Of a DNA stretch of 64,000 nucleotides, positions 184-33,393 are shown one piece after another. The stretch covers positions 1 to 64,000 of IMG/VR virus record IMGVR_UViG_3300033072_000303; one strand, written 5' to 3'. The notes under the pieces are model-generated. The model was not told the origin of the DNA. It saw nothing but the letters and a program-made list of their open reading frames with translations, and ran no database searches. The translations under genes were made by a program, and so were the position numbers. This DNA is from a virus (lineage: Duplodnaviria; Heunggongvirae; Uroviricota; Caudoviricetes). The first letter of the stretch is position 1, and each line of letters opens with the position of its first letter.

Positions 184-1023
184 ATGATAATACTAAATAA
201 TGAAATAGTACCAGTAGCAAAGTTTCCTGCTGGGGAGATTAGGATTAATGTTAAGGCTCTTGATATTAATGAAATAGAACTAAAGTTTGAGGGTTCCGAT
301 GATATTATCGCGTTACAAATGATTTGTGACGCAATTAAACAACAAGGTAAAGAACCCAATGTATTAATTATGAGATATGTGCCTTATGGTCGTCAAGACA
401 GAGTTTGTAACACAGGTGAGTCGTTTAGCTTAGAAGTTTTTGCTAAGACTATTAATGAATTAAAGTTTGGTTCAGTAATTATACAAGACCCACACAGCTG
501 GCAACAAGTTACTATGATAGACAACTCAGTAGTAGTCCCACAAAGTGACACGTGGTTAGATGCTGTCAAAACGTTTAGTAAAACATATAAAGACAAAAAT
601 ACTGAGTTTACTTTAGTATCTCCTGATGCAGGAGCTAAAAAGAAAATTGAGACTTTATCATGCTTATCTGATATTTCATCGATTTACTGTGATAAAGTAA
701 GAGACCCTAAGACAGGTAGACTATCAGATTTTACTGTACAAGGTGACCAAAAGCTAAACGGCGTTTATTGTATTGTTGATGATATATGTGATGGTGGCGG
801 TACATTTATAGGGTTAGCTAAAGAGTTAAAAAGATTGGGTGCTAGTAAAGTACTGTTATGTTGTACTCACGGTATCTTTAGTAAAGGTATTGATTGTATC
901 TTAGAAGAAGTTGATGAAATTTACACTACAGATTCATTAATGTACTATACAAGATTTAGTAATGATGAAAAATTTAAAGTTATTTATAGTGGATATTTTG
1001 AGGAGACTTATAATGGAAATTAA
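184..1023 (+). CDS. Ribose-phosphate pyrophosphokinase family protein (PRPP-synthetase-like; could be the ADP-ribose pyrophosphokinase 'Adps' type)
   Basis: Prs hallmarks are present: YGRQDR and the PRPP-binding loop IVDDICDGGGT. It is 279 aa, the length of a Prs catalytic domain. It lies directly upstream of the NAMPT homologue. Confidence 0.7.
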   Translation: MIILNNEIVPVAKFPAGEIRINVKALDINEIELKFEGSDDIIALQMICDAIKQQGKEPNVLIMRYVPYGRQDRVCNTGESFSLEVFAKTINELKFGSVIIQDPHSWQQVTMIDNSVVVPQSDTWLDAVKTFSKTYKDKNTEFTLVSPDAGAKKKIETLSCLSDISSIYCDKVRDPKTGRLSDFTVQGDQKLNGVYCIVDDICDGGGTFIGLAKELKRLGASKVLLCCTHGIFSKGIDCILEEVDEIYTTDSLMYYTRFSNDEKFKVIYSGYFEETYNGN

Positions 1024-1330
1024 AAGCCAAACAGTAGAGTATAAAGGTACTACAAAGTTTAAGTACACTATTACTAGTGACAACGAGGTTAGGATTAAAA
1101 TCCCTGATAGGTTTATTGGAACGGTATTTGAGCAAGGCTGGATTAGTATGTGTAATGAAATGACCCAAGTATTGCTAACAGTGCCTAGAACTGCCACGTT
1201 AAGAGGCAGAACTGGGCAAAAGGTTAGTAAAATAGCGCCAAAAGTACACTTACGTATTGGACAAAAACACGTAGGCAACTATGATATTTTTAATAAGACA
1301 TACACAGAAGTTAAAAAGGAAGTAGAATGA
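1013..1330 (+). CDS. Hypothetical small protein
   Basis: An internal ATG at 1013 follows AGGAG at 1001-1005. The ORF fills the gap between the Prs-like gene and nadV and ends in a TGATG-type overlap with the nadV start. The track ORF 962..1330 gives the longer alternative. Confidence 0.35.
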   Translation: MEIKSQTVEYKGTTKFKYTITSDNEVRIKIPDRFIGTVFEQGWISMCNEMTQVLLTVPRTATLRGRTGQKVSKIAPKVHLRIGQKHVGNYDIFNKTYTEVKKEVE

Positions 1331-3009
1331 GAATTATGAGAAAAAATCCGATACTTTGTATCGACAGTTATAAGCTTGGACACATCACAATGGTTCCAGA
1401 AGGTGTTGAAACAAGCTACTTAAACTTTACTCCAAGAAGTCTTAAGCATCTAGATAAGATAATCCCAAAAGAGGTTCAAGATGATACTCTAGTTGCGTAT
1501 GGTGCTAGATTAGCAATAAAAGAGATTCACGAGAACTTTAAGCAAGATTTCTTTGCTTTAGATATTGATGAGATTATGGAGGAGTTTTTAATAGAAATTA
1601 AACCTTTTGTTGGAGATAACTCTACGGAAGTAATTGAAAGAAGTATTAGAAATTTACACGCTTTAGGTTACTTACCATTAGAGATAAAATGGATTGCTGA
1701 GGGAACTATAGTACCAGCTAACACTCCGATTATGACCATCAAAAACACTCATTCATCATTCGCTTGGCTTCCAGGGTACCTTGAAACTTACATTTCAGCT
1801 GAGTTCTGGAAAAGAGCAACAAGTGCAACTATAGCAAGAGCGTATAGAAAAATATTAATTAAGTATGCTAAAGAAACTTGCGATAACACTTTACACGTAG
1901 ACTATCAGGGTCACGACTTTAGTGCTAGAGGGTTGTCTGGTGCAGAAGATTTTATTAAAAATGGTACAGCACATTTATTATCATTTAAAGGTACTGATAT
2001 AATTCACTCTGCTACACTTATAAAGCACTTATATAACGTAGAAAACATTGACGTTATAGGCTGCTCAGTTCCAGCTACAGAGCATTCTGTGATGTGTCTT
2101 GGAAGTACAGCTGAAACTGAAGTTGAAACATTCAGAAGACTTATTAAGCTATATCCTAGAGGTATCGTTAGCATTGTATCTGATACTTGGGATTTCTGGG
2201 ATACAATTACAGTTAAAGCACTAGAGTTAAAAGAAGATATCTTAGCTCGTCAAGAGGACTCTTTAGGGTTATCTAAACTAGTATTCAGACCTGATACTGG
2301 AAATCCAGTTGATGTTATTTGTGGATTAAATATTATTAAAACATTAGATGTACAGGTACTAGGTTGGGATAAACTAACGTTGAATGAAGTTCCCGTACAA
2401 AACACAGTGTATTTTGATGGTAACAAGTACAGATGGATTTATGCTAGATGTGACGAAACTACAGGATTATGCGTAGAGATTGATATTGACCAGGCTGAAT
2501 ATCCTGTACCTGAAGCAGAAGCTAAAGGTGCTATTGAATGCTTATGGGACATCTTTGGTGGTAGTGTAAACGATAAAGGTTTCAGAGTTCTTAATCCTAA
2601 AGTTGGTCTAATCTACGGGGATAGTATTACATCTCAAAGAGCAATAGATATTTGTGAAAGGCTTAAAGCTAAAGGATTCGCTTCAAGTAACATAGTATTT
2701 GGTATTGGGTCTTATACTTACAATTATACTACAAGAGATACATTAGGTTCTGCTATTAAAGCAACATACGCTGAGATTAGCGGTAAAGGGTTTGATATAT
2801 TTAAAGCCCCTAAAACAGACTCTGGTAAAAACTCAGCTAAAGGTCTATTATCAGTAGTATTAGAAAACAATAAAATTGTAACATTACAGCAATGCACAAA
2901 AGAACAAGAAGAAAAAGGGTTATTAGTTGTTGGTTATAACTCTGGGGTATTTTCAGAAGAGAAGCCATACTTCAATGAAATTAGAGCAAGAGCTCAAATA
3001 AATTTATAA
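1327..3009 (+). CDS. nadV: Nicotinamide phosphoribosyltransferase (NAMPT/NadV family; possibly the Namat variant)
   Basis: The N-terminus NPILCIDSYKLGH matches the canonical NAMPT start (DSYK..H). It is 560 aa and globular. A good RBS (AAGGAAG) sits 6 nt upstream. Confidence 0.8.
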   Translation: MRIMRKNPILCIDSYKLGHITMVPEGVETSYLNFTPRSLKHLDKIIPKEVQDDTLVAYGARLAIKEIHENFKQDFFALDIDEIMEEFLIEIKPFVGDNSTEVIERSIRNLHALGYLPLEIKWIAEGTIVPANTPIMTIKNTHSSFAWLPGYLETYISAEFWKRATSATIARAYRKILIKYAKETCDNTLHVDYQGHDFSARGLSGAEDFIKNGTAHLLSFKGTDIIHSATLIKHLYNVENIDVIGCSVPATEHSVMCLGSTAETEVETFRRLIKLYPRGIVSIVSDTWDFWDTITVKALELKEDILARQEDSLGLSKLVFRPDTGNPVDVICGLNIIKTLDVQVLGWDKLTLNEVPVQNTVYFDGNKYRWIYARCDETTGLCVEIDIDQAEYPVPEAEAKGAIECLWDIFGGSVNDKGFRVLNPKVGLIYGDSITSQRAIDICERLKAKGFASSNIVFGIGSYTYNYTTRDTLGSAIKATYAEISGKGFDIFKAPKTDSGKNSAKGLLSVVLENNKIVTLQQCTKEQEEKGLLVVGYNSGVFSEEKPYFNEIRARAQINL

Positions 3010-16509: not shown

Positions 16510-17622
16510 ATGCGTAAATTAGTTACAATTAGGACAGTTGATAGGTTAATTCCTATCAACGGTTGTGATAATATTTGCTTGGCTGTTATAGATGGTTGGC
16601 AAGTTATCGTTAAGAAAACAGAATTTGTAGTTGGTGATTCTTGTTTATTTTTTGAGATTGATAGTTTTATCCCAGTAAAAGATACGAGATTTCAGTTCTT
16701 AAACAAAGTTACTAAGTTTAATGGTTTTGAAGGTTACAGAATTAAAACCTTAAAAATGAGAGGCGTTTTATCTCAGGGGTTAGCACTACCATTAACTATG
16801 TTTCCAGAGATACAAAATTTCTTTTTGGAAGACTATAGCGAAGCCTTAGGTGTTGTTAAATATGATAATGCAGTTGCTGAGGCTAAAGGTGGACCTAAAG
16901 CTGGTAATTCAGCTGGTAAGTTTCCATCATTTATTCCTAAGACAGACCAAGAAAGGGTACAGAACTTAACATCATACTTTACTACGATGAAGGATGAAGT
17001 ATTTGAAGAGACTTTAAAACTAGATGGCTCTAGTTTAACTTGTTTTACAATGCCAAGACCTAGAACGTGGTTTCAAAAATTACTAAATAAAATAGGGATA
17101 AGAACTGAAATCAAACAAGAGTTTAGAGTTTGTTCTAGAAACCTAGAAATTAAAGAACCACAAAAAGAAGATGAACCTAAAACTTATGATAATAATGGCA
17201 GACCAACCACTGTAAAACAAAGTGATTACTGGACGGTTGTTAAAAAATATAACCTACACAAAAAGATTCCTTTAGGTTTTGCAGTGCAAGGTGAAATGAT
17301 TGGTCCTAAAATTCAAGCTAATCACGAGAAAGTGCACGACCTCGAGTTTTATGCTTTTGACGTGTATGATATAGGTGAATCAAAATACTTGTTACCTCAC
17401 GAAAGAAGAGAGTTTTGTGCTACTTATGATATTCCTCATGTACCTGTTGTTTCGCAAGGAATAAAACCATTTAATATGAGTTTAGAAGAACTTTTAACTC
17501 ACGTTGAAGGAGAGTCTATGAATGCTGGAACAATTTCTGAGGGTAGAGTGTATAAACATATATATAAAGACATCAGTTTTAAAGTTATTAGCAATAGTTA
17601 TTTATTAAAATCAGAAAGGTAA
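16510..17622 (+). CDS. RNA ligase (Rnl, DRB0094/Rnl5-like family)
   Basis: The N-terminus MRKLVTIRTVDRLIPINGCDNICLAVIDGWQVIVKKTEFVVGD..FFEIDSFIP is typical of PF09414-type RNA ligases. Nucleotidyltransferase motif I is present as KLDGSS. Confidence 0.6.
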   Translation: MRKLVTIRTVDRLIPINGCDNICLAVIDGWQVIVKKTEFVVGDSCLFFEIDSFIPVKDTRFQFLNKVTKFNGFEGYRIKTLKMRGVLSQGLALPLTMFPEIQNFFLEDYSEALGVVKYDNAVAEAKGGPKAGNSAGKFPSFIPKTDQERVQNLTSYFTTMKDEVFEETLKLDGSSLTCFTMPRPRTWFQKLLNKIGIRTEIKQEFRVCSRNLEIKEPQKEDEPKTYDNNGRPTTVKQSDYWTVVKKYNLHKKIPLGFAVQGEMIGPKIQANHEKVHDLEFYAFDVYDIGESKYLLPHERREFCATYDIPHVPVVSQGIKPFNMSLEELLTHVEGESMNAGTISEGRVYKHIYKDISFKVISNSYLLKSER

Positions 17623-18055: not shown

Positions 18056-18092
18056 AGTATAGTTTCGTTCTGTTAACATTATAAGGATAATT

Positions 18093-18416: not shown

Positions 18417-18424
18417 GGACAAAA

Positions 18425-20369: not shown

Positions 20370-20985
20370 TACTCACACTATGCACCATAAAATACAATTA
20401 CCAGATTTATCAGATATTGACGTAATTGTTCATACTGGTGACTTTAGTAATAGTGATGAAGCAAGTACTGATGTATTTTTATGTTGGTTTGCTGACTTAC
20501 CAGTACCTTGTAAAGTCCTGGTAGCGGGTAATCACGATAAATATGTTATGCACTACAACGATAGATTTAAAATAAAATGTGCTGTATTAGGCATAGAGTA
20601 TCTACAAGACTCTGGATGTGAAATTAATGGCATTAAATTTTGGGGTACACCTTGGGTTAATCAGTTTTATAACTGGGCGTTTATGATGTACGAAAAAGAC
20701 TTAAGTAAAGTTTATAAGTTAATACCTAAAAACACCGAGATTCTACTGTCCCACGGACCAGCTAAAGGTATACTAGACTTTGTTGATAGAGTAGGTGGAG
20801 GTAATGTTGGAGCTATGACGTTAAAAGAGCGTTTAGCTAAACTGCCTAAACTGAAATACCACATCTTTGGTCATATCCACGAGGGTTATGGTATTTTAGA
20901 TACTGGCAGCTACATAGCAGTAAATGCTTCTTCTGTTACAGAATTATATAAACCAGTTAATCAACCTATAATAATAGAGGTGTAA
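20347..20985 (+). CDS. Calcineurin-like metallophosphoesterase
   Basis: Metallophosphoesterase motifs are in order: LSDTH, HTGDFS, AGNHD, SHGP, GHIHEG. Confidence 0.6.
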   Translation: MKILCLSDTHTMHHKIQLPDLSDIDVIVHTGDFSNSDEASTDVFLCWFADLPVPCKVLVAGNHDKYVMHYNDRFKIKCAVLGIEYLQDSGCEINGIKFWGTPWVNQFYNWAFMMYEKDLSKVYKLIPKNTEILLSHGPAKGILDFVDRVGGGNVGAMTLKERLAKLPKLKYHIFGHIHEGYGILDTGSYIAVNASSVTELYKPVNQPIIIEV

Positions 20986-23300: not shown

Positions 23301-23728
23301 AACTATATGACGAAATACAATCAAAAGATACTATGTATAGTAGCTTCCCAATAAAAGAAACTATGCTAACAGAAGGTAAAACGTACTCTGTAATTTATGT
23401 TGATGGTGGTAAGTTTGCGTTATTTGACGATAACAACCATCATATAGAGTTTTGGGATGTAGAATTTGATGAATACTTTACAAGTGTTACAGAAGATTTT
23501 AATAATCTAATAAAACATCTGGAAATAAGTTGTAAGTTGAATAAAAATATACCTATTAAAATGTATGATTATGTGTTTAAAAATTACAAGAGTTTTAATA
23601 TGATTTATACAAAACTAGAAAATAGAAGCGTAGAAAAATCTTTTGATTCTATAATAATTAAAGACACAGCATATAGTACGAAATTAACTAGCGAAGAACT
23701 TCTAGCTAAATTAAAGGAAACGATATGA
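23297..23728 (+). CDS. Hypothetical protein
   Basis: 143 aa. ATGA-coupled on both sides. Confidence 0.45.
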   Translation: MKLYDEIQSKDTMYSSFPIKETMLTEGKTYSVIYVDGGKFALFDDNNHHIEFWDVEFDEYFTSVTEDFNNLIKHLEISCKLNKNIPIKMYDYVFKNYKSFNMIYTKLENRSVEKSFDSIIIKDTAYSTKLTSEELLAKLKETI

Positions 23729-24783
23729 TAAAAGATAAAATAAAAGAATTAGAGATTGCTCACGATATCAGAGTTATATACTTGATAAAAAGCGGTTCAG
23801 CCCTATATGGTACTAATTCAGATAGTTCTGATACGGATTATATGGGTATTTTTATACCTAGTGCTAGGTCAGTAATGCTGAAAAAAGACCTAGAACATAT
23901 ATGTCTAACTACTGGTGAAGCTAACTCTAGAAACTCTGCAGATGATGAAGACTTACAACTATGGAGTATTTATAAATTCCTACATCTGGTAAAGAAAGGT
24001 GAAACTGGTGCGTTAGATTTATTATTTAGTTTTAACGCTAAACACTCATCTGAAATACACGTAATAAACGACACAATGTACACAGATACGATAACAGAAA
24101 ATATACCTAAGCTTGTATCAAAAAACTTACAAGCTTTTGTTGGTTACTGCCTAGGACAAGCTAAAAAGTACAATATAAAAGGTGAAAGGTATTCTGAAGT
24201 AGAAGTCTTCTATAGAGAATTTAAAGAACTTGAAGTAAAGACTACTAAAAGTTCTTTACATACTATACATAGGACACTAGAAGATATAATAGATAAGGCT
24301 AGGTTTAAATACATTAAGTTAGTAAGGGCAAGAGGACCAAAAAGGTTTACAGAAGAAGATATTTGGTACATTGAAATACTAGGCAGAAAACACGCTTTAG
24401 ATATCTCTATAGCAGAATTCACAGCTCGTATAGACAAACTATTCAACTCTTTTGGAGCAAGAGTTATAGCCGCAGCTGACGGTGTAGACAATAAAGCTTT
24501 AAGCCACGCTACAAGAGTTATCTTAGAGTGTAAAGAGTTACTAGAAAAAGGTTATATTACATTCCCATTACCATCTGCTGAGTTTATTAAAGAAATAAAA
24601 TATCATAAAGACTTAGTTAATGGTACTCCAGAAAATCCTGGATTAACTTTAGAAAGTATTATGGTTTTATTAGAAAGAACTTTAGATGATGTTAATAGGT
24701 TACTAGAAGATTCAGAGTTACCTGATAAAGTATCAGAGGAATTAATAACAGAAATGTTAATAGAAATAATGGAGATAGTATGA
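23725..24783 (+). CDS. Pol-beta-superfamily nucleotidyltransferase (minimal NTase fold)
   Basis: SGSALYGTNSDSSDTDYMGIF fits hG[GS]x(9-13)Dh[DE]h. It is ATGA-coupled to the CCA-adding enzyme gene. Confidence 0.45.
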   Translation: MIKDKIKELEIAHDIRVIYLIKSGSALYGTNSDSSDTDYMGIFIPSARSVMLKKDLEHICLTTGEANSRNSADDEDLQLWSIYKFLHLVKKGETGALDLLFSFNAKHSSEIHVINDTMYTDTITENIPKLVSKNLQAFVGYCLGQAKKYNIKGERYSEVEVFYREFKELEVKTTKSSLHTIHRTLEDIIDKARFKYIKLVRARGPKRFTEEDIWYIEILGRKHALDISIAEFTARIDKLFNSFGARVIAAADGVDNKALSHATRVILECKELLEKGYITFPLPSAEFIKEIKYHKDLVNGTPENPGLTLESIMVLLERTLDDVNRLLEDSELPDKVSEELITEMLIEIMEIV

Positions 24784-26093
24784 TGTTTAACACACCGAAT
24801 GTGTATGTTGTAGGTGGTGCTGTAAGAGATATTCTTATGGGTGTACAACCTAGAGATATAGACTACGTTGCAGTAGGTTTAACTGCACAGCAACTAATAG
24901 ATGATGGTTTCGTTCCTATAGATGCTGAATTCCCTGTTTTCCTTGACCCTAATGATAACTCAGAAGTAGCTTTGGCTCGTAGAGAAAAAAGCACTGGTAA
25001 AGGTTATAAAGACTTTACCACTGACACGTCTGATGTAACTTTAGAAGAAGATTTAAGAAGACGTGACTTAACAATTAATGCTATGGCTATGGATTCTGAA
25101 AAAACTATTATAGACCCATTTGGAGGACAGAAAGACCTACAGTCTAAAATATTAAGGCATACTTCTGACGCGTTCTTTGAAGACCCCTTAAGAGTATTAA
25201 GGTTAGCAAGATTTCAAACTAAGTACCCAGACTTTAGGATTCATGAAAGTACTATAGAAATTGTTAAAGCAAACAAAGACTCGCTTAAAGCTTTGACTCC
25301 TGAAAGAGTACAAAAAGAAATGTATAAAGCTTTAGAGTACAAGTACCCTAGTTTGTACTTTAGAACACTAGAGTTTTTAGGTGTTTTGGATTTAGTTCAT
25401 CCAGAACTTTATGATATGAAGCAATGTATTCAAAAACCTACACATCACGCAGAAGGTGACGTTTTTCTACACTCTATGATGGTATTAGATGAATGCGCTA
25501 AGTTATCTAAGGATGTTAACACTAGATTAGGAGCACTTTACCACGATATAGCAAAACCTATATGCGATGTTAAAAAACAAGGTTTTCATAAAGGTCACGA
25601 TGGTATTAATGTAGTACAACCTTTAGTACAAGAATTAAAAAATAGGTATAAGCTTCCTAATAAAGCTGAGAAGCGTATTGTCCAAGGTGCTTTATTTCAT
25701 ATGAAGCTACACAAATTAAAAGATATGAATTCTAGTACTATTGCAAGTATGTTTAACGATAAGTTCTTTCCAAAAACTAAAGAAGATTTAATTCAGTTAC
25801 TATGTATAAGCGTAGCTGATTCAAGAGGTAGAATCACAATCGGGTATGATAAAGAGGAAGTAAATGTTGATGCTATAGTTAATACTTTTAACGCTATTAA
25901 GGCGTATAGCCCAAAAGCTGAAATTGAAGAATATAACAAAAGACATCTTGATGATGGTAAAACTGCTAATCCAGAACTGATTAAACAAATGATTCATAAA
26001 TACTCTATTAAGTGTGTTGACGCTTGGTTAAGACCTCATTATACTATATCTAAAGATAAACAAGATAACTATACTAAACATCTCTTAAGTTAA
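24780..26093 (+). CDS. cca: CCA-adding tRNA nucleotidyltransferase with HD domain
   Basis: The class II head is VVGGAVRDILMG..RDIDYV. The HD domain is present as HHAEGDVFLHSMMVLD and LYHDIAKP. Confidence 0.75.
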   Translation: MMFNTPNVYVVGGAVRDILMGVQPRDIDYVAVGLTAQQLIDDGFVPIDAEFPVFLDPNDNSEVALARREKSTGKGYKDFTTDTSDVTLEEDLRRRDLTINAMAMDSEKTIIDPFGGQKDLQSKILRHTSDAFFEDPLRVLRLARFQTKYPDFRIHESTIEIVKANKDSLKALTPERVQKEMYKALEYKYPSLYFRTLEFLGVLDLVHPELYDMKQCIQKPTHHAEGDVFLHSMMVLDECAKLSKDVNTRLGALYHDIAKPICDVKKQGFHKGHDGINVVQPLVQELKNRYKLPNKAEKRIVQGALFHMKLHKLKDMNSSTIASMFNDKFFPKTKEDLIQLLCISVADSRGRITIGYDKEEVNVDAIVNTFNAIKAYSPKAEIEEYNKRHLDDGKTANPELIKQMIHKYSIKCVDAWLRPHYTISKDKQDNYTKHLLS

Positions 26094-26160
26094 GTTTAAG
26101 CAAACTTTCGGTAAACTATCTTTACCGCTGAAAGGGAGCTAAACCTATTATATAGCTAGT
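26085..26160 (+). promoter_or_regulatory. Conserved promoter-like intergenic element, copy B
   Basis: Same 76-nt element as copy A, with an identical 3' 45 nt. It overlaps the cca stop and ends 39 nt before the ATG at 26200. Confidence 0.45.
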
Positions 26161-26199
26161 TACTAGCTAATTTTCTAAAAATAATTTATAAGGATAAAT

Positions 26200-27561
26200 A
26201 TGACTCTTTCTATAAGTACTATCTGTAAAATCCTACAAGGGCTAATAGATACAAAAGGTACAAATGATAAAGAAACTTACTTATCTAATGTATGTAATAA
26301 TCCAGAAGTTAAACATCTATTAACTATACTGTTAGATTCTAAGTATACACTAGGTATAAAAAAGTTAGGAGATATTAAAGTGTCTTCTGATAAAACAATA
26401 AGGAATTTTGATGAACTGAAACAACTATTAGATACACTAAATTCTAGTAATATAAATGACTCTTTAAGAGAGCAAGTTATTAAGTTTTTAGGCGGGTGTA
26501 CTAAAGAAGACCAAAGCATCTTAAAAGGTATATTCCAAAAAACCTTAAAATTAGGTGTTACTAGTAAAACGTTCTCAAAAGTATTTAAAGGAGTGATTAA
26601 AGAACATCCTATCGCATTAGCAAAAAGTCCTACTGAAGCAGTACCGCCAATACCTTGTATAGTTAGTACTAAGTACGATGGTATTAGGTACACACAAGTA
26701 AAGGTTGTAGTAAATGAAGATAACTCAGTTGATATAGGTACTGCTCTTACTAGAGACCGTAATGTAATGAGATTTAAAAGGATTGAGAACGGTATTAAAC
26801 AGTTACTTAATAACCAAGTTGGTGAATGGGTTATAGATGGTGAACTAGAAACATTAGATGAAGACTTCGATAAAATCCAAGGAGTAGTTAGCTCTAATAT
26901 AGATAACAAGGTATATGAAGATGGAAATAACCTAAAGCTTACTGTATTTGATATTATTAGATATTCTGATTATATTGGTGAAACTAAATCTAAACCACAA
27001 TCTGAAAGACTAAAAGATTTAAGCAGGTTGTTCATAATAAATAAACCAACTGGTTTAGTGGAAGCTGAACATATAACTGTGTACTCACTAGAAAAGATTA
27101 AAGAACTTACTGATGAAAAAATTAATAAAGGGCTTGAGGGTACAATTATTAAAGACCCAAAAGCAAATTATAAAAAAGGAAAAACATCAGCTTGGATTAA
27201 ACAAAAAGCTATAAATGACTGCACATTAAAATGTGTTGGTGTTACTATATCTGACAATAACAAAAGGGCTGGTAAAGTTGGTGCTTTATGTATGGAGTCA
27301 AGTGATGGTTTAATTAAAGTTAATGTAGGTTCTGGGTTGTCCGACGACTTAGTTGAATTATATACAAAGACACCTCCTATTGGTAAGTTCTTTGATGTAC
27401 TTTTCAACCAAGTTTCTCAGGCAGAGGATTTACAAATGAGTTTAAGGTTACCTAGACTTAAAGGAGCTAGAATTGATGTTGTTGAAGCTGATAGCTTTGA
27501 GAAAATAAAAGCGCAACATATTGGTGCGATGAAATTAAAAGGAGATAAAGATGAAGATTAA
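26200..27561 (+). CDS. ATP-dependent DNA ligase
   Basis: Motif I KYDGIR, motif IV EGTIIKDP and motif V WIKQK, with a T7-ligase-like overall layout. Confidence 0.75.
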   Translation: MTLSISTICKILQGLIDTKGTNDKETYLSNVCNNPEVKHLLTILLDSKYTLGIKKLGDIKVSSDKTIRNFDELKQLLDTLNSSNINDSLREQVIKFLGGCTKEDQSILKGIFQKTLKLGVTSKTFSKVFKGVIKEHPIALAKSPTEAVPPIPCIVSTKYDGIRYTQVKVVVNEDNSVDIGTALTRDRNVMRFKRIENGIKQLLNNQVGEWVIDGELETLDEDFDKIQGVVSSNIDNKVYEDGNNLKLTVFDIIRYSDYIGETKSKPQSERLKDLSRLFIINKPTGLVEAEHITVYSLEKIKELTDEKINKGLEGTIIKDPKANYKKGKTSAWIKQKAINDCTLKCVGVTISDNNKRAGKVGALCMESSDGLIKVNVGSGLSDDLVELYTKTPPIGKFFDVLFNQVSQAEDLQMSLRLPRLKGARIDVVEADSFEKIKAQHIGAMKLKGDKDED

Positions 27562-27823
27562 AGATTTAGTATTAATAGATTTAATAGAGGATAAAGCACT
27601 AGGTATAGCTAGTGAAGTTACTGGTACACTATATACAGCATTTGATGCTTATGATAAAGTACAATTTAATATAGATGCTGATTGTCTTAAAAAGAAGTAT
27701 AAAAGAGAATTTTATGGTAGAGCAGTAATTTTGCTCTCATTAATTAGAGAATTTAATTTAATAACTGATTCTAGATGTTATAATTTATTAAGACACATAG
27801 AAGATACATTTGGACCAAAGTAA
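27551..27823 (+). CDS. Hypothetical protein
   Basis: 90 aa. Overlaps the ligase gene end. Confidence 0.4.
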   Translation: MKIKDLVLIDLIEDKALGIASEVTGTLYTAFDAYDKVQFNIDADCLKKKYKREFYGRAVILLSLIREFNLITDSRCYNLLRHIEDTFGPK

Positions 27824-27862
27824 GGCTTAGTGCCTTACTAATAACAAAAAAAAAGGATATTA

Positions 27863-29182
27863 ATGAAAAAGGCTATGTTAATTTATGTAAGCTCTACTGG
27901 TAACGGTAAAGGTGGTAATACAGGAAATAATAACAAGTTCTATTATATTGAGCTAAAAGAATCAGGTGATGTGTATTTTAGGTATGGTAGAGTTGGTACT
28001 AGTGGTTCTGATGGAACAAAGCAAGGCGTTGGTCTAGCGGGTTTTCATAAGTTAATGAAAAGTAAAACTTCTAAAGGTTATGTAGAAGTTCCTTTAGACT
28101 TAGACGCAGACGTATCGTCAATAGATACTAATACTTCTGGTTCGGACATTATGATGATAGCATTATCTCAAATAAAGTCTGATGATGATTCTAAAGCACT
28201 TATTAAAAAACTTGTAGCACGTAATATACATAATATTACAAGTAACACAAAGATTACATTTAATGCTAGTACAGGATTATTTAAAACTCCGTTAGGTGTT
28301 GTTACTAAAGAGGGTATTGACAAAGCTGAAAGTATCTTAGATGAGCTTTCTAAGATACTTGCGAGACCTACTCTTGATTCTAGTTATATAACATACGAAG
28401 TGGATATTAGAAATTACTCTGAACAGTATTACTGTATCATCCCAACCACTGTTGATAACTTAAGAAGTATCTACTCACACATTTATAACAAAGATGCTTT
28501 ATCTAAACAGTATGACATTTGTTCTGCGTTAAGACAGAGCATAGATATTTTAGATAAAGATAAGCTTAAAGCTATACAAGCCGCTCAGGCTGACACAAGT
28601 ATTCCAGTACTGTTTAATACATCTTTAGTGAAGCTTACTGATAGTAAAGAGTTCGATAGAATAGAAAGGTATTTTGAGAAGTCTAAAAACTCACAACACG
28701 GTCGTACTACTTCTAAAGCTAAAATTAAAAATATATATTGTATAAATATAAAATCAGATGATGATGCGTATAGACACGATTTAACTAATCAGATGGAGTT
28801 ATGGCATGGTACTAAGGTAGTTAACATCTTAAGTATATTAAAGTCAGGTCTGTTAATGCCAAAGTATAGTCCAGGTTCTGTTACAGGTTATATGTTTGGA
28901 CAAGGTTTATATTTTTCTAACCAATCATCTAAGTCATTAAATTACTGTGATGGTATGTACTGGAATAACTCGAATAGGAGTGATAATTTTATCTATATGT
29001 TTGTTGCTAATATAGCTATGGGTAACTACCAAGTACCTAAAGGAAGTACATCAAAATTACCTGATAATGGTTATGACTCTTATTGGGCACAGCCTGGTAA
29101 GTCTGGTATAATGAATGACGAAATGATTGTGTTCAAAAATGAACAAATACAATTAAAGTACTTATTAGAAATAGAGGTTTAA
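27863..29182 (+). CDS. Poly(ADP-ribose) polymerase homologue (WGR domain plus PARP catalytic domain)
   Basis: The N-terminal WGR-like segment reads KFYYIELKESGDVYFRYGRVG. The C-terminus ELWHGTKVVNILSILKSGLLMP..GYMFGQGLYFSNQSSKSLNYC..NDEMIVFKNEQIQLKYLL aligns with PARP1 ELLWHGSR..GYMFGKGIYFAD..SANYC..YNEYIVY. The H-Y-E triad is intact. Confidence 0.75.
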   Translation: MKKAMLIYVSSTGNGKGGNTGNNNKFYYIELKESGDVYFRYGRVGTSGSDGTKQGVGLAGFHKLMKSKTSKGYVEVPLDLDADVSSIDTNTSGSDIMMIALSQIKSDDDSKALIKKLVARNIHNITSNTKITFNASTGLFKTPLGVVTKEGIDKAESILDELSKILARPTLDSSYITYEVDIRNYSEQYYCIIPTTVDNLRSIYSHIYNKDALSKQYDICSALRQSIDILDKDKLKAIQAAQADTSIPVLFNTSLVKLTDSKEFDRIERYFEKSKNSQHGRTTSKAKIKNIYCINIKSDDDAYRHDLTNQMELWHGTKVVNILSILKSGLLMPKYSPGSVTGYMFGQGLYFSNQSSKSLNYCDGMYWNNSNRSDNFIYMFVANIAMGNYQVPKGSTSKLPDNGYDSYWAQPGKSGIMNDEMIVFKNEQIQLKYLLEIEV

Positions 29183-29184: not shown

Positions 29185-29526
29185 ATGTATAAAATTTATC
29201 TAGTACAAGCAGATGACAGGTGCTATGAAGATGGTTCAGTATATACTATAACAGCTTTTTCTAATAGAGAGACAGCAGAACTTTTGAAGTGTAAAATAGA
29301 ACAAGTATTCTATTATGTAGAACAAAGAGCTGATAAGTACTTAGCCAAACACCCAGAGTGCTACTTGAATAGTGTACAAGAAAGAATATTTAATAGTATT
29401 AAAAGAAACAAAATGTTTAAATATCTTAAAGATATAGACTGGAGTTATTGGTATGACTCTGGTCCAACTATTATAATAAACGAATTAAATCTACACGATA
29501 ACTTTACAGACTACATTGGAGAATAA
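29185..29526 (+). CDS. Hypothetical protein
   Basis: 113 aa, 3 nt downstream of the PARP gene. Confidence 0.45.
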   Translation: MYKIYLVQADDRCYEDGSVYTITAFSNRETAELLKCKIEQVFYYVEQRADKYLAKHPECYLNSVQERIFNSIKRNKMFKYLKDIDWSYWYDSGPTIIINELNLHDNFTDYIGE

Positions 29527-29696
29527 ATGAATATATCAAATATAGAAGAACTAGAAGAAAAAGTTACTGATTTAACTATGGCTACAAAAGACTTACTAAG
29601 TGCTATAGAACAAAATACAGAATATTTAAATGACGGTGAAGCTTGGGTTAAAATCCAGTATTTAGCCGACGAAATAGATGCATTTGGAGCAATAAT

Positions 29697-30284
29697 ATGA
29701 AAGAAAAGCTATTAAAATACGAGAATATGAAATTAAAAAACCAGTACATATTTACTTTACCAGCAACCAAAAGTGTATGCGGTAGGGTGTGTCCAGGGTG
29801 TTATGCAATAAAGTTTCAGGTTAGATTTCCCAAAACATTAGAGTACAGAGAAAGAATGCTAGAAAGAAGTAAACAAGATGAATTTGTTAATGATATTGTA
29901 GATGAGCTGAATAAAAGTAAAAGGGAGTACACTTCAGTTAGGATACACGAAAGTGGTGAATTTTATTCACAAGAGTATATTAATAAATGGGAAAAGATTG
30001 CTAAGCAGTTACCTAACACAAAATTTTACGCTTTTACAAAACGTATGAAAGATTTTGATTTTAAAAGGATTATGAGCTTACCTAATGTTGTTATTATAGA
30101 CTCAATGAAGTTTAATGGTCTTAATTATGGACCAAAAGAAGATATGATGAAACTAAGAGCGGAACATGGTACTATGATTTGCCCCGCTACTATAAGCAAC
30201 AATAAAGAAACGTGTGGAGTTACCTGTGACTGGTGTTGGACTAAAAAAGCACAAGAGTTTGGCACTGTGTTCGTTAAACATTAA
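29697..30284 (+). CDS. Radical-SAM activase-like protein (NrdG/glycyl-radical-activase family), two Cx3Cx2C motifs
   Basis: SVCGRVCPGCYA matches the NrdG cluster motif C-x3-CPGCY. A second motif, CGVTCDWC, lies at the C-terminus. Its 195-aa size fits NrdG. Confidence 0.45.
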   Translation: MKEKLLKYENMKLKNQYIFTLPATKSVCGRVCPGCYAIKFQVRFPKTLEYRERMLERSKQDEFVNDIVDELNKSKREYTSVRIHESGEFYSQEYINKWEKIAKQLPNTKFYAFTKRMKDFDFKRIMSLPNVVIIDSMKFNGLNYGPKEDMMKLRAEHGTMICPATISNNKETCGVTCDWCWTKKAQEFGTVFVKH

Positions 30285-30431: not shown

Positions 30432-30689
30432 ATGCTACCGTACAAGGAAGTGTTAACTATACACGAAGATACAGAAGGAGTGTATAAAAAGATGTCTGGG
30501 TCTGGGTATACTATAACAGGTGTGGCTAAAGAATACCTTTTACACGCAGCTCTTATGTTTATACGTAATGATAATAATGATTATTACTGTGTAAAAAATA
30601 GAATAACTGGTGTCACAGGACCAATGACAATAGCTGAAGTGGATAAACTACAAAAAGAATATTTCAATAGAAGGGGTCTAAATGGTTAA
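30432..30689 (+). CDS. Hypothetical protein
   Basis: 85 aa. Overlaps the DNA polymerase gene start. Confidence 0.4.
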   Translation: MLPYKEVLTIHEDTEGVYKKMSGSGYTITGVAKEYLLHAALMFIRNDNNDYYCVKNRITGVTGPMTIAEVDKLQKEYFNRRGLNG

Positions 30690-33393
30690 AGAACTAAAAT
30701 TAATACCAAATTCAACACCTGATACAGCAGTACTAATAAAAGATTACGATGTTACTGAAAAGAATAAAACAAACTTAATGTATAGGTACATTCAAAAGTT
30801 AACAGCTTTAGGTGTTGAAAAACCAGGATTTAGATTTACATTTTTAGGGTTAGTACAAAACCCAGACTCTAAGAAAAAAGTAAATAAAACAGTGGCTTTA
30901 GAGTGTTTAGGTAATATCCTAGAGCACTGTGACATTCAAGGTATAACTACATTATTATGTACTGACGCTACGTATTTTCAGCTACTTACAGGTAGAAGTA
31001 AATTAGAAGAAAGTATTGATGGAGTGTATAAAGTAGTGATAACGGGTTTTGAGCATATTACTGTGTTGCCTAGTTTACACTATAACGCTTTAATAATGGC
31101 TCCACAAAAAGAATCAGTACTTGAAAAATCGCTTAAAGTACTAGCTATGCACTTAAACGGAAGCTATTCCAAACCTGGTGCAGATGTACTTAAAGATTAC
31201 ACTAAGTGTTATTCAGCAAACGAGTTAAAGAGAGTATTAAACGAATACATGGTTCTCCCAGAAATAACTTGTGATATTGAGGCTACTCATTTAAAGTTTT
31301 ATAAATCTGAGTTACTTACAATAGCCTTTGGTAAAGATAAGCACACCGCTATGACTTGTGCTGTACATCATTTGTATCATAATCAGCTAGAGTCAAATAG
31401 TATTAAACAAGTACTTAAAGAATTCTTTATTAACTATAAAGGTAAAGTATGGTTTCATAACGCACTATTTGACGTTAAGCAACTAACATACAGACTATTT
31501 ATGAGGAGTTTAGACGACTTTACAGGGATGCAAGAAGGTTTAGATGCTTTCGAGAATGTACACGATACATTTATGGTTGCTTACTTAGCTAAGAACTCAA
31601 CGTACCGTCAAGGGTTAGGATTAAAAGAACTATCTAAAGAGTTTATGGGTGAATACGCAGAGGATGTTAAAGAGGCAATAAAAGTTCCGTTAGAAGACTT
31701 AATGCTGTATAACGCAAAAGACTGCTGTGCTACTTGGTATGTACTAGATACGTATAGACCTATAATGATTCAAGATGACCAACAGTATGTGTATGACACA
31801 ATAATGCAACCTAGTATGAAGCCATTGCTTAAGATGATGCTTACTGGTTTGCCAATAGACTTAGGAAGAACCGAAGAGGCTAGAATCGAGCTACAAGCTA
31901 AACTAGATGATGCAGTAAATACCCTTAATAAGTCACACTATGTTAAGCGTGCTGTTTCAGTTTTAAAGTATAATGCTGCTGAAAAGTACAATGCTACACA
32001 TAAGACTAAAAAGATAAATGCAAATGATGTTGAACTGGAGTTTAATCCTAACTCATCAGACCAATTAAGACTATTATTATTTGAAATCTTAGGGTTTGAA
32101 GAAATAGAGAAAACTAAAGCTGGTAAGTCTAGTACTAAAAGAAATTTTATAGAGGAATACCTAGCAGAGGCTAAAGCTGACGGCGAGTCTGATGTAGTTT
32201 CTTGCTTAGAGGCTTTAGTAAATGTTTCTCAGATAAGTATTATATTGAACACTTTTATAACAGCTTTTGAAGAGCTTAGTGTTGAGCATCCAAGTGGTTA
32301 TAAATTCCTTAAGGGTAATTTAAAACTAGGTGGAACACAATCAGGAAGACTGTCTAGTTCTGAACCTAACTTACAAAACTTACCATCTGGTTCAAAGTAT
32401 GGTAAAATTATTAAGAACTGCTTTGTTGCACCAAAAGGTTGGCTGTTCGCTGGAGCAGACTTTAGCGCCCTCGAAGATAGAATAGGGGCAATCCTAAGTA
32501 ACGATATGAATAAGACAAAGGAATTTGCCTACGGGTTTGACGGTCATAGTTTACGTGCTTTAGCATTCTTTCCAGAAGAGCTACCAGAAGGCTTATCTAT
32601 TGATTCACTAGAGGATAATAAACTTATAAAGAAACAATACGGTGACATTAGAGGTAAGTCAAAAGGACCATCGTTTGCAATGCAATACGGGTGTGGTCCT
32701 GGAAAAATACAACAGTTACTAAAATGCTCTAAAGCAAAAGCTGAAGAAGTCTACTCAGCGTTTCATAATCTATATTCAGGGTTATCTAAATTTGCTCAAG
32801 TTAATAAAATCCAAGGTATGACTAATGGGTATGTAACAGGAGCCTTTGGATTAAGACTTAGAACTCCTAAGCTGAAAGCACACAGAGCTGGTACTAAAGA
32901 GTCTACCGAGGTAGGTTCTGAAGCGCGTTCTGCCTCTAATATGGTTACACAGTCTTGGGGTATGTTGATGAATAGAGCTTTAATTGAGTTTAATCAGAGA
33001 CTTGAAAACTCAGAATTCAAACATAAAGTTAGACTTATTAATACTATACACGATGCTGGTTATCTATTAGTTAAAGCTGAGCCAGAAGTGGTAGAGTGGG
33101 TTAATATTAACTTTGTAGAGTGCATGAAATGGCAGGACGGATTAATTGCTTCTGATGAAGTTAAAATGGAGGCTGAAGTAGACTTTGGTCTAGATTGGGC
33201 ACATCAAGAAACGTTACATAACAACGCGTCTAAAGAGGAGTGTAAAGCTTTTATAGATGCTATTAATATGTATGACTCAGTTAAACATCTTGAGTATAAC
33301 AATCAACCAGTAAAATTTAACGTTGTGTATAAACTAGCACTAGAAGGTTTTGACAATCTATCAAAATTAATAACAAAATTAAGCGAAGTTTAA
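30682..33393 (+). CDS. Family A DNA polymerase with 3'-5' exonuclease domain
   Basis: Exo I is TCDIEATH, Exo II is WFHNALFDVKQL, Exo III is YNAKD. Pol motif A is ADFSALEDRIGA and motif B is RGKSKGPSFAMQYGCG. Motif C reads IHDAG, HDA rather than HDE. An N-terminal extension of about 190 aa is unassigned. Confidence 0.85.
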   Translation: MVKELKLIPNSTPDTAVLIKDYDVTEKNKTNLMYRYIQKLTALGVEKPGFRFTFLGLVQNPDSKKKVNKTVALECLGNILEHCDIQGITTLLCTDATYFQLLTGRSKLEESIDGVYKVVITGFEHITVLPSLHYNALIMAPQKESVLEKSLKVLAMHLNGSYSKPGADVLKDYTKCYSANELKRVLNEYMVLPEITCDIEATHLKFYKSELLTIAFGKDKHTAMTCAVHHLYHNQLESNSIKQVLKEFFINYKGKVWFHNALFDVKQLTYRLFMRSLDDFTGMQEGLDAFENVHDTFMVAYLAKNSTYRQGLGLKELSKEFMGEYAEDVKEAIKVPLEDLMLYNAKDCCATWYVLDTYRPIMIQDDQQYVYDTIMQPSMKPLLKMMLTGLPIDLGRTEEARIELQAKLDDAVNTLNKSHYVKRAVSVLKYNAAEKYNATHKTKKINANDVELEFNPNSSDQLRLLLFEILGFEEIEKTKAGKSSTKRNFIEEYLAEAKADGESDVVSCLEALVNVSQISIILNTFITAFEELSVEHPSGYKFLKGNLKLGGTQSGRLSSSEPNLQNLPSGSKYGKIIKNCFVAPKGWLFAGADFSALEDRIGAILSNDMNKTKEFAYGFDGHSLRALAFFPEELPEGLSIDSLEDNKLIKKQYGDIRGKSKGPSFAMQYGCGPGKIQQLLKCSKAKAEEVYSAFHNLYSGLSKFAQVNKIQGMTNGYVTGAFGLRLRTPKLKAHRAGTKESTEVGSEARSASNMVTQSWGMLMNRALIEFNQRLENSEFKHKVRLINTIHDAGYLLVKAEPEVVEWVNINFVECMKWQDGLIASDEVKMEAEVDFGLDWAHQETLHNNASKEECKAFIDAINMYDSVKHLEYNNQPVKFNVVYKLALEGFDNLSKLITKLSEV

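Follow-up and report, generated by a model that had tools for sequence, protein, structure and literature searches.

A PARP2-like WGR-HD-ART protein encoded in one gene block with an ATP-dependent DNA ligase in a phage genome

The 64,000-nucleotide stretch of phage DNA analysed here (hereafter the window) encodes a complete PARP2-like poly(ADP-ribose) polymerase (PARP) of the DNA-dependent clade and of bacterial type, in which a WGR domain, a helical regulatory domain (HD or PARP_reg) and a catalytic ART domain follow one another in a 439-amino-acid protein. As the preliminary description of this DNA had proposed, the gene lies one small gene downstream of an ATP-dependent DNA ligase, exactly at the ORF coordinates described (Table 1). 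Phage PARPs had also been described as very rare, and homologs were indeed detected in only 16 of 50,697 phage records. The window gene is however not a first: Perina 2014 (PMC4245714) already listed PARPs from phages, Iyer 2021 (PMC7824862) noted them as well, and PARPs of WGR-HD-ART architecture are annotated in GenBank records of Cellulophaga, Klebsiella, Xanthomonas and Stenotrophomonas phages. It adds one more case to a family of phage genes that is rare but not new. No experiments on any phage PARP were found in the literature searched.

Table 1. Features of the window discussed in the text
Feature	Coordinates	Strand	Basis
PRPP synthetase and NadV-type nicotinamide phosphoribosyltransferase (NAD+ salvage), 25 kb from PARP	184..3009	+	
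DRB0094-type RNA ligase, ~10 kb upstream of PARP	16510..17622	+	Family scan
RlaP nucleotidyltransferase, upstream of ligase	23725..24783	+	Pfam RlaP
CCA-adding/repair enzyme with HD domain, immediately upstream of ligase	24780..26093	+	Pfam PolyA_pol and HD
Terminator-like hairpin between CCA enzyme and ligase (106-nt gap)	26153..26169	+	Consensus scan only
ATP-dependent DNA ligase, 453 aa, KxDG motif 'TKYDG'	26200..27561	+	Pfam, PDB, NCBIfam DNA-ligase models
orf90, small four-helix protein, 90 aa	27551..27823	+	AF2
PARP, 439 aa, WGR-HD-ART	27863..29182	+	Pfam, PDB phmmer, AF2, Foldseek
WGR domain, residues 1-78, 'YGR' variant	27863..28096	+	Alignment to PARP2/PARP3 WGR
Helical (auto-inhibitory) regulatory domain, about residues 96-240, L159 and L223 invariant	28148..28582	+	Pfam PARP_reg, model
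ART catalytic domain, residues 250-439	28610..29179	+	phmmer alignment, homolog conservation
ART triad codons H315, Y350, E420	28805..28807, 28910..28912, 29120..29122	+	
orf113 and orf57, small ORFs right after PARP	29185..29700	+	ORF calls

Three Pfam domains score above threshold in the protein, in agreement with its earlier description as a PARP with an N-terminal WGR: WGR (PF05406, 35.8 bits, cut-off 22), PARP_reg (PF02877, residues 120-224, 37.9 bits, cut-off 26.8) and the PARP catalytic domain (PF00644, 106.1 bits, cut-off 26.7). Its top PDB match with phmmer is the PARP1 catalytic fragment (6e-19). The AF2 model (pLDDT 85.5, pTM 0.79) has helices at residues 96-240, and the best Foldseek matches are the WGR-CAT structures of PARP1 on a DNA break (4dqy_C and 4opx_C, TM 0.66), with the PARP2-DNA structures 7aeo and 6x0l also among the top matches; matches to the PARP1/2 catalytic-domain fold have E-values of 1e-20 to 1e-24. 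The model therefore resembles PARP1/2 with WGR and helical domain and not a bare toxin-like mono-ART. T4 Alt, ModA and ModB are, as the window PARP, phage-encoded NAD+-dependent ADP-ribosyl transferases, but they lack WGR and HD and belong to the cholera-toxin-like mono-ARTs with R-S-E (PMC8120803), whereas the window PARP belongs to the H-Y-E, diphtheria-toxin/PARP class; an Alt/Mod-type enzyme is ruled out by the combination of H-Y-E, WGR and HD.

All the motifs previously quoted for the protein (FYYIEL..FRYGRVG, ELWHGT, GYMFGQGLYFS, SLNYC and NDEMIVF) are present, and the phmmer alignment places LWHGT, GYMFGQGLYFS, SLNYC and NDEMIVF on PARP1 LWHGS, GYMFGKGIYFA, SANYC and YNEYIVY. The claim that the catalytic domain follows PARP1 almost residue for residue is thus accurate for the active-site motifs, to which near-identity is confined, but overstated overall, the identity to PARP1/2 structures being 20-24%. 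The His-Tyr-Glu triad is intact, with H315, Y350 and E420 falling on PARP1 H862, Y896 and E988 in the phmmer alignment. All three residues, the catalytic Glu included, show no variation among 70 database homologs and among 62 viral copies, and in the 70 homologs the same holds for G316, K357, S358 and Y361. The invariance in viral copies indicates purifying selection on activity, and as far as its residues tell, the phage PARP is apparently active as an ADP-ribosyl transferase. The H-Y-E triad is needed for chain elongation but is not enough alone. At the position of PARP1 Y986 the family has its own invariant Asn (N418), and the loop on the acceptor side falls ~25 residues short of that of PARP1, so that chain length and branching are not predictable. 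phmmer further aligns the helical domain with the PARP1 HD, and within it L159 with the leucine of PARP1 'SIL'.

The WGR domain, aligned to NNNKYYLIQL..WGRVG, has predicted nick and 5'-phosphate contacts of PARP2/3 type at N22, N24, K25, Y27, Y41, R43, K68 and Y73; all of these except Y41, together with G42, are invariant in 70/70 homologs. PARP2 contacts DNA through N127, K130, Y132, W151, R153, K183 and Y201, among which N127, K130 and Y201 are PARP2/3-specific and responsible for activation by breaks with a 5'-phosphate (PMC6294510). The equivalents of N127, K130, Y132, R153, K183 and Y201 are all invariant in the 70 homologs, that of Y201 (Y73) being inferred across a deletion. The Trp of the WGR motif is replaced by Tyr, as is usual in bacterial PARPs (PMC5966428).

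Human PARP2 and PARP3 have domain order, fold, H-Y-E and the PARP2/3-specific WGR residues in common with the phage PARP. The latter differs in being phage-encoded and only ~20-24% identical to them, in lacking a disordered N-terminal tail and any chromatin, HPF1 or XRCC1 context, and in the Tyr of its WGR motif, the Asn that takes the place of PARP1 Y986 and the strongly shortened loop on the acceptor side. Judging from published descriptions, HaPARP of Herpetosiphon aurantiacus and CdPARP of Clostridioides difficile are like the phage PARP in architecture, size and 'YGR' (PMC8120803, PMC5966428); both make PAR in vitro, HaPARP being DNA-dependent and CdPARP highly active (PMC8120803). The catalytic half of a Yarrowia homolog (P0119) is 46% identical to that of the phage PARP, its WGR and first helices 35%, and the two proteins have in common a short loop and the motif GVMNDE(I/M)IVF (GVMNDEIIVF in Yarrowia). 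Pyl1 of Yarrowia lipolytica, of which P0119, from another Yarrowia species, is assumed to be the ortholog, PARylates itself and Ku (PMC12412787), but has coiled-coil insertions, no recognisable PARP_reg, and in vitro activity without added DNA (PMC12412787).

The neighbouring gene product has the adenylation domain with the KxDG lysine and the OB domain of an ATP-dependent DNA ligase. DNA_ligase_A_M (PF01068) scores 71.4 bits (cut-off 26.2, 1e-19) and the OB_2 domain 23.3 bits, under its cut-off of 28, and the top PDB matches are the ATP-dependent DNA ligases 6rar/6rau (5e-16, residues 42-422), followed by T4 and T7 ligases. Ligase, orf90, PARP, orf113, orf57 and GP88 are packed co-directionally in an operon-like manner, with spacers of -11 to +39 nt: the start of orf90 overlaps the ligase stop by 11 nt, 2 nt separate PARP from orf113, none separate orf113 from orf57, and orf57 and GP88 overlap by 3 nt. 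An AGGA-type ribosome-binding site precedes each of ligase, orf90 and PARP. The block recurs in other sequencing runs: an independent gene caller returned identical genes, orf113 and orf57 included, in two other, identical assemblies (L091 and L092), and the gene order of the block is kept in both as well as in L062 and L087; in L087, ORFs in the place of orf113/orf57 match by size only, and a 93-aa ORF matches orf90 by position only. The orf90 product (pLDDT 93.4) has no fold match and no Pfam, PHROG or PADLOC match, and its family has only 7 representatives among 1.84 billion. Its homologs adjoin PARP in L062 and L015 and are fused into a larger protein in L005, so that orf90 travels with PARP in its clade. 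No significant family match was obtained for orf113 or orf57, and PADLOC gave only a weak WGR-domain match for PARP (WGR_XIII, 19 bits) and none for orf113 or the ligase.

The explanation that we tentatively prefer, and to which we would give slightly less than an even chance, is that the PARP is a nick- or break-activated ADP-ribosyl transferase working with the phage end-joining enzymes. In the resting state, access of NAD+ would be blocked by the helical domain. The WGR domain would bind a 5'-phosphate nick or break, the same structure that the neighbouring ligase seals; binding would lift the auto-inhibition, and the H-Y-E site would move ADP-ribose from NAD+ to the enzyme itself, to nearby proteins or to a phosphorylated nucleic-acid end, probably in the form of chains, short or long. 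In the infected cell, broken phage nucleic-acid ends may in this way be marked, shielded or passed to the phage end-joining enzymes. Because the ligase uses ATP, it would be unaffected by local NAD+ consumption.

The link to the ligase is recurrent, not general. Among 21 PARP clades defined at 50% identity, four have an ATP-dependent DNA ligase within 2 kb of PARP (0.3-0.7 kb away, in both gene orders), and these four are deep-branching on the PARP tree. A ligase occurs anywhere within 10 kb in five clades and in four of the five within 0.7 kb (P about 1e-4, a rough value under uniform placement), while the control genes dNMP kinase, ThyA, TopoII, PhoH and PolA lie within 2 kb of PARP in only 0-2 clades. 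The other 17 clades, Klebsiella and Xanthomonas phage isolates included, have no DNA ligase nearby, and the ligase is thus not an obligatory partner of PARP. Moreover, all these genes belong to replication and nucleic-acid-metabolism regions of large phages, so that adjacency is possible without functional coupling. Both situations are met in isolated phages whose full-length homologs, annotated as PARP, are 25-41% identical to the window PARP (Cellulophaga phi4:1 gp031, Xanthomonas XacN1 ORF414 and Klebsiella vB_KpM_FBKp34 gp111). Phage phi4:1 has the same set of CCA enzyme, PARP, small ORF and DNA ligase, with the gene order relative to the ligase inverted, whereas FBKp34 and XacN1 have a macrodomain or VWA neighbour instead of an adjacent ligase. 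The window phage has no DNA-level relation to any isolate, and its PolA reaches no more than ~36% identity with the best match.

That most phage PARP loci are without a ligase would suit a role in host takeover or counter-defence, as proposed for jumbo-phage PARPs (Iyer et al. 2021, PMC7824862). The enzyme would then ADP-ribosylate proteins of the host in the manner of T4 Alt/ModA/ModB, with RNA polymerase, translation factors and defence proteins among the possible targets; the WGR domain would only localise it on DNA, and its adjacency to the ligase would be incidental. Other clades pair PARP with the putative DNA-binding, antidote-like c183 and with TARG1/DarG-like macrodomains, pairings that are typical of conflict systems; a TARG1-like macrodomain lies 1.6-4.5 kb from PARP in five of them. 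Both this macrodomain and the ~220-aa partner family that also recurs in other PARP clades are absent from the window. We consider such a role unlikely here, since the helical domain and every PARP2-type nick-contact residue are retained, which argues for an activity gated by nucleic-acid breaks and not constitutive, since the gene lies among replication genes (ligase, PolA) and not typical immediate-early takeover genes, and since PADLOC found nothing past the WGR domain.

The neighbourhood of PARP suggests repair of RNA ends no less than of DNA breaks, and the enzyme could instead belong to a phage response to RNA (tRNA) damage, with RlaP, CCA enzyme and RNA ligases, that counters host anticodon nucleases; broken RNA ends would activate PARP, or PARP would ADP-ribosylate phosphorylated RNA ends. 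In the window, PARP lies 1.8-3 kb downstream of the CCA enzyme and RlaP, the former scoring 338 bits with the NCBIfam model for multifunctional CCA addition/repair protein, under the curated cut-off of 451, and a DRB0094 RNA ligase and a metallophosphoesterase are found 7-10 kb upstream. RNA ligases or a CCA-adding enzyme adjoin PARP in other clades: the CCA enzyme of phi4:1 ends 2 nt before PARP, six loci, all in one clade, have a T4 Rnl1-type RNA ligase 0.3-1 kb upstream, and L082 and L089 have a DRB0094 RNA ligase at a distance of 1.1-1.6 kb. RlaP is 2-4.5 kb from PARP in three clades, and FBKp34 has an RlaP-domain ORF at 4.5 kb; RlaP and CCA genes also flank PARP in L072 and L003, and L072 gathers CCA, PARP, c183 and RlaP within 6 kb. 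RlaP, CCA enzyme and RNA ligases are established parts of phage RNA repair (PMC7824862, PMC12776372), and some PARPs and TRPT1 are reported to ADP-ribosylate RNA ends (PMC9458441, PMC8053099). Nevertheless, RNA-repair genes occur within 2 kb of PARP in only 5/21 clades, the terminator-like hairpin would part an RlaP-CCA unit from the ligase-PARP unit, and PARP2 uses the equivalents of the conserved WGR residues to recognise a nick in duplex DNA (PMC6294510). Furthermore, in the literature consulted, RNA ADP-ribosylation is reported for PARP10/11/15 and TRPT1 and not for WGR-type PARPs. An RNA-damage function thus appears rather improbable.

Lastly, PARP could be a recently captured host gene, a passenger without phage-specific role, or a mere NAD+ sink. 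A host origin was suggested by Perina 2014 (PMC4245714), and homologs 50-60% identical occur in cellular-looking contexts, those of L088/L090 being syntenic and chromosomal and those of L060/L061 different, while the L064 homolog belongs to a Sulfurovum MAG. However, PARP is kept in the same block in phage relatives down to 65% identity despite surrounding HNH and intein insertions, all viral copies share its catalytic and DNA-binding residues, and the phage puts resources into salvaging NAD+ rather than into depleting it. We therefore regard a passenger or sink as very unlikely. The salvage module announced in the preliminary description does comprise a ribose-phosphate diphosphokinase, i.e. 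PRPP synthetase (TIGR01251, 117 bits, cut-off 113), and a NadV-type phosphoribosyltransferase (NF006629, 485 bits, cut-off 405), while no NMN adenylyltransferase was identified among the scanned window ORFs. The idea that it is a dedicated source of NAD+ for PARP is unsupported, because NadV is 25 kb away and in none of 59 other phage loci (L001-L059) lies as close as 10 kb to PARP.

Herpetosiphon and C. difficile also encode a PAR-reversing PARG. The ORF scan of the window took in most + strand ORFs of >=90 aa, but only a minority of the minus-strand ones past 52.5 kb and not all of the small + strand ones; within this scope no ORF had a Pfam match to an eraser (PARG, macrodomain or ARH), and tblastn of the window gave no match to phage macrodomains. 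These 64 kb thus show no evident reversible signalling cycle; the database lists an identical PARP on an 86,262-bp contig.

Beyond the preferred reading of the window PARP, phage WGR-PARPs in general might be nick or end sensors functionally coupled to polynucleotide ligases, and so represent, among viruses and prokaryotes, an equivalent of the axis that links PARP and ligase at single-strand breaks in eukaryotes, although we hold this to be doubtful. In one version, 5'-phosphorylated phage DNA or RNA ends would be marked with PAR or ADP-ribose, shielded from host nucleases and handed to the ATP-dependent ligase. If so, the c183 partner found in sister clades would be the regulator, and the TARG1/DarG-like macrodomains the eraser, of the same system; if the bacterial and phage family is ancestral, the PARP-ligase partnership would be older than eukaryotes.

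PARPs are central to eukaryotic DNA-break signalling, and active bacterial PARPs were demonstrated more than a decade ago. What is new here is the proximity of a ligase in 4/21 clades in both orders, the adjacency of RNA ligases and CCA enzyme, the proximity of RlaP and the recurrence of a ~220-aa partner and a TARG1-like macrodomain. This comparative pattern supplies candidate partners, namely DNA ligase, RNA ligases and CCA enzyme, the c183 family and macrodomains. A compact 439-aa enzyme that keeps its catalytic and nick-sensing residues, with a ligase in the same block, offers a tractable model for two questions: how a minimal PARP functions where there is no chromatin, and whether phages use the ADP-ribosylation of proteins or nucleic-acid ends in their replication or in the arms race with their hosts.

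Pfam resolves the 439-amino-acid protein into a WGR domain (residues 20–76), a PARP_reg regulatory domain (120–224) and a PARP catalytic domain (261–407), all scoring above the curated thresholds. A sequence search of the PDB returned PARP1 and PARP2 as the top matches (6e-19), and the alignment with PARP1 places H315 on H862 (ELWHGT on LWHGS), Y350 on Y896 (GQGLYFS on GKGIYFA), K357, S358 and Y361 on K903, S904 and Y907 (KSLNYC on KSANYC) and E420 on E988 (NDEMIVF on YNEYIVY). A confident AlphaFold2 model (pLDDT 85.5, pTM 0.79) was obtained from an alignment of 70 sequences; its top Foldseek matches are PARP1 WGR-catalytic chains bound to a DNA double-strand break (4dqy_C and 4opx_C, TM 0.66), with PARP2-DNA complexes also among the best. 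Domain assignment, PDB alignment and modeling all support the identification as a WGR-containing PARP with an H-Y-E triad made in the preliminary description: the catalytic Glu is present and correctly placed, and the fold is not that of a bare toxin-like mono-ART. The "almost residue-for-residue" match to PARP1 announced there holds for the active-site motifs, which are near-identical, but not for the whole protein, whose overall identity to PARP1/2 is 20–24%.

Residues H315, G316, Y350, K357, S358, Y361 and E420 are invariant in 70 database homologs, and the triad is likewise invariant in the window's own copy and in 62 further copies taken from phage records and from viral or related contigs. 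In PARP2-DNA structures, N127, K130, Y132, W151, R153, K183 and Y201 touch the nick, N127, K130 and Y201 being the residues specific to PARP2/3 that determine activation by 5'-phosphorylated breaks (PMC6294510). Alignment gives N22, K25, Y27, Y41, R43, K68 and Y73 as their equivalents in the phage WGR domain, Y73 probably corresponding to Y201 across a deletion. All of these except position 41 are invariant in 70 of 70 sequences; position 41 is a Tyr in 56 of the 70, a residue typical of bacterial "YGR" PARPs (PMC5966428). Two leucines of the regulatory domain, L159 and L223, are also invariant, the former aligning on the leucine of the PARP1 "SIL" motif.

The family differs from PARP1 by an invariant Asn at the position of Y986 and by an acceptor-side loop that is shorter by about 25 residues. 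A Yarrowia homolog (P0119), 46% identical over the catalytic half, shares both features, and experiments have shown that Pyl1 of Y. lipolytica makes poly(ADP-ribose) (PMC12412787). Thus, assuming that the compared protein is orthologous to Pyl1, the Asn and the short loop are compatible with chain synthesis. The fungal PARPs of Yarrowia sp. (P0119), Smittium angustum (P0108) and Dipsacomyces (P0120) are 37–46% identical to the phage/bacterial family, and the Yarrowia protein combines the family-specific motif GVMNDEIIVF with the short loop, which suggests, from sequence comparison, that a gene passed horizontally between fungi and bacteria or phages; the Pyl1 paper (PMC12412787) does not contain the word "horizontal".

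Phage PARPs had been described as very rare, in agreement with our tblastn search, in which 16 of 50,697 phage records gave a homolog. These include Klebsiella phages FBKp34, 05F01 and KP13-16 (about 40% identity to the window PARP), Xanthomonas phages XacN1 and Xoo-sp13 and Stenotrophomonas phages CM1 and RAS14 (about 34–35%), Cellulophaga phages phi4:1 and phi17:2 (25%) and two huge uncultured phages. Existing annotations call several of these proteins poly(ADP-ribose) polymerase, and they carry the three domains seen here. PARPs of Aeromonas phage Aeh1 and Cellulophaga phage phi4:1 were reported together with their H-Y-E triad (Perina et al. 2014, PMC4245714), and bacterial PARPs with this architecture show activity in vitro, that of Herpetosiphon in a DNA-dependent manner and that of C. 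difficile (PMC8120803). The literature searched yielded no experimental study of a phage PARP, and a search for literature on Klebsiella phage FBKp34 found none. The family is sizeable in metagenomes, with 759 matches at E<1e-5, mostly 415–445 amino acids long, and a pattern-limited scan of IMG/VR gave 56 PARP loci. The protein is therefore a further member of a known, rare phage gene class and not a new kind of system.

The open reading frames of the ligase, orf90 and the PARP (Table) match exactly the positions first assigned to them, with an AGGA-type ribosome-binding site in front of each; the start of orf90 overlaps the ligase stop. Independent gene calls in two other assemblies encoding the identical protein (SRR31200905 and SRR32380192) gave the same block of ligase, orf90, PARP, orf113, orf57, GP88 and PolA, and the locus is thus real and repeatedly recovered.

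Table. Features of the window and of compared PARP loci (L numbers; phage records, viral or metagenomic contigs and MAGs).
Feature	Position	Remarks
PRPP synthetase (ribose-phosphate diphosphokinase)	184–1023	TIGR01251, above cut-off
NadV-type phosphoribosyltransferase	1327–3009	560 aa; NF006629, 485 bits
DRB0094 RNA ligase	16510–17622	
MazG	18425–18817	
dNMP kinase	18938–19516	
Metallophosphoesterase	20347–20985	
SF2 helicase	20985–23300	
RlaP	23725–24783	
CCA-adding/repair enzyme	24780–26093	with HD domain
ATP-dependent DNA ligase	26200–27561	453 aa
orf90	27551–27823	90 aa
PARP	27863–29182	439 aa
GP88	29697–30284	
PolA	30682–33393	
VWA protein	37620–38186	
VWA homolog	L002:7225–7875	Xanthomonas phage XacN1
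c183	L012:11319–11981; L006:12093–12728; L068:6287–6967; L072:8417–9124	others exist
Macrodomain	L001:3010–3525	FBKp34 gp105, annotated "putative phosphatase"
Macrodomain	L024:12852–13379; L031:15833–16321; L046:15033–15806; L047:14497–15054; L074:10653–11243	

The window, with a G+C content of about 32%, covers the half of a large, virulent, uncultured phage that is devoted to replication and nucleic-acid metabolism, PolA being followed by ThyX, RNR, a VWA protein, PhoH, DnaB, primase, FEN and SbcCD. The GC skew switches at 52.5 kb, and the mostly unannotated genes beyond, on the minus strand, are presumably structural. A search for near-identical DNA found no close relative among the 50,697 phage records, and PolA, whose best match is only about 36% identical, is distant from N4-like and other phages. 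Sigma-70-like sites were fewer than the shuffled expectation (28 vs 34.6), and no promoter is therefore claimed. A set of RNA-repair genes (DRB0094 RNA ligase, metallophosphoesterase, RlaP and CCA-adding/repair enzyme, 16510–26093) immediately precedes the ligase-PARP block. ARAGORN predicts a tRNA-Met (CAT) of 99 nt at 7973–8071; the usual length is about 77 nt, and the call may reflect an insertion, an intron or a mis-call. The phage also encodes an SPFH/Band-7 protein and a ClpP/NfeD-like protease (3804–4658 and 40668–41486), 36 kb apart, although such proteins are usually paired in cells.

To place this arrangement in the family, neighbours were tabulated for 87 PARP loci, which form 21 clades when clustered at 50% PARP identity. 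An ATP-dependent DNA ligase lies within 2 kb of the PARP in four clades, at 0.3–0.7 kb: the window with contigs L062 and L087; Cellulophaga phage phi4:1; L036–L042; and L023 with L030. On the PARP tree these clades are widely separated, and both orders of the two genes occur among them. Counting up to 10 kb, a ligase is found in five clades, in four of them at 0.7 kb or less, roughly P = 1e-4 under uniform placement, a value that ignores the functional clustering of replication genes. The link to the ligase first noted in this phage thus recurs, but in only 4 of the 21 clades within 2 kb. At the same distance we found the CCA-adding enzyme in three clades, the DRB0094 RNA ligase in two (L082, L089) and a Pfam-assigned T4 Rnl1-type RNA ligase in one (six loci, 0.3–1 kb upstream), the controls dNMP kinase, ThyA, TopoII, PhoH and PolA occurring in 0–2 clades each. 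RlaP is 2–4.5 kb away in three clades, and in L072 the CCA-adding enzyme, PARP, c183 and RlaP all fall within 6 kb. The PARP recurrently, though not universally, adjoins enzymes that heal and seal polynucleotide ends, an adjacency of which we found no description in the literature searched. The CCA, RlaP and RNA-ligase neighbours lend support to a rival reading, a possible role of the PARP in RNA or tRNA repair. At 8.4 kb downstream of its PARP, the window encodes a VWA protein with clear homologs (E 1e-24 to 1e-37): one is located 10 bp after the PARP in XacN1, and others are within 4–6 kb of the PARP in related jumbo-phage contigs (L044, L050, L035).

The most conserved partner of the PARP family is c183, an uncharacterised family of about 200–230 amino acids whose gene directly follows the PARP, within 2 kb, in 8 of the 21 clades (within 10 kb in 10), in phage contigs and in bacterial MAGs (Armatimonadota, Blastocatellia). 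Its N-terminal domain is conserved (FTAFDIT..LR..H..VK..Y.RT..AFVYHP) and its C-terminal half is weakly AbrB/antidote-like, with non-significant PDB matches (E 0.05–0.8); no Pfam, PHROG or PADLOC match was obtained. In five clades, a TARG1/SCO6735/DarG-like macrodomain (PDB matches 2afc, 2fg1 and 5e3b, E 1e-33 to 1e-37), a candidate eraser, is encoded 1.6–4.5 kb from the PARP. Both pairings would fit the PARP being a host-takeover effector, an alternative already published as the modification of host proteins, with mention of the XacN1 enzyme (Iyer et al. 2021, PMC7824862). Both partners are absent from the window's clade, and no PARG, macrodomain or ARH was detected in the 64-kb window by Pfam among the ORFs scanned, most plus-strand ones of at least 90 amino acids being covered, or by tblastn with phage macrodomains; the identical protein is listed on a contig of 86,262 bp. 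As for the intervening ORFs, only that of L030 falls in c183 by profile comparison, that of L023 being related to it by BLAST (2e-8). We rejected orf90 and orf113 as remote relatives of c183 or of the intervening ORFs of phi4:1 and L036 (hhalign probability <1% in both cases). The clade-specific orf90 is predicted to form four helices (pLDDT 93), has 7 family representatives in 1.84 billion and gave no fold match with E<1.

PARPs 65–74% identical to that of the window are found in the syntenic phage contigs L062 and L087, and PARPs 50–60% identical in the cellular-looking contexts L060/L061 and L088/L090, while the nearest match in genome collections is a Sulfurovum MAG (L064, 51%). These contexts give a hint of the host lineage and of gene exchange between phage and host, plausibly with a low-G+C lineage, possibly Campylobacterota; a further alternative is that the PARP is a passenger gene of host origin. 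L060/L061 (GC 23%) also carry SmpB, MFS and GGDEF genes, and the mutually syntenic L088 and L090 encode PhoH, peptidase M23, HAD hydrolase, PARP and an AAA protein. In the close relatives, PolA is split by intein/HNH insertions, and genes for HNH homing endonucleases have entered the stretch between ligase and PARP and the one after PARP (L062:4352–8779; L087:1392–1880 and 4841–5326, for these features together); the order ligase, PARP, GP88, PolA is kept despite these insertions.

The preliminary description also had the genome supplying NAD+ through the module at 184–3009. The salvage genes are real, but a dedicated supply is not supported, as they lie 25 kb from the PARP and none of the 59 other phage loci (L001–L059) has NadV within 10 kb of it. 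No NMN adenylyltransferase was recognised among the scanned window ORFs, and the 122-amino-acid ORF overlapping the salvage genes (962–1330) has no family match. Phage NAD+ salvage systems have been listed among the metabolic means of countering NAD+ restriction by the host (PMC7824862).

Taken together, the best-supported reading is that of a PARP2/3-like, break-activated enzyme acting with the phage ligase. The data establish the domain identity, the conserved residues and the linkage of the genes. From these we infer that the resting protein would be auto-inhibited by its helical domain and activated by binding of the WGR domain to a 5'-phosphorylated nick or break; it would then move ADP-ribose from NAD+, possibly as chains, to itself, to nearby proteins or to a nucleic-acid end, in concert with the ATP-dependent ligase. 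In this family the nick-sensing and catalytic apparatus is strictly conserved, and the recurrent ligase and RNA-repair neighbourhood offers testable partners.
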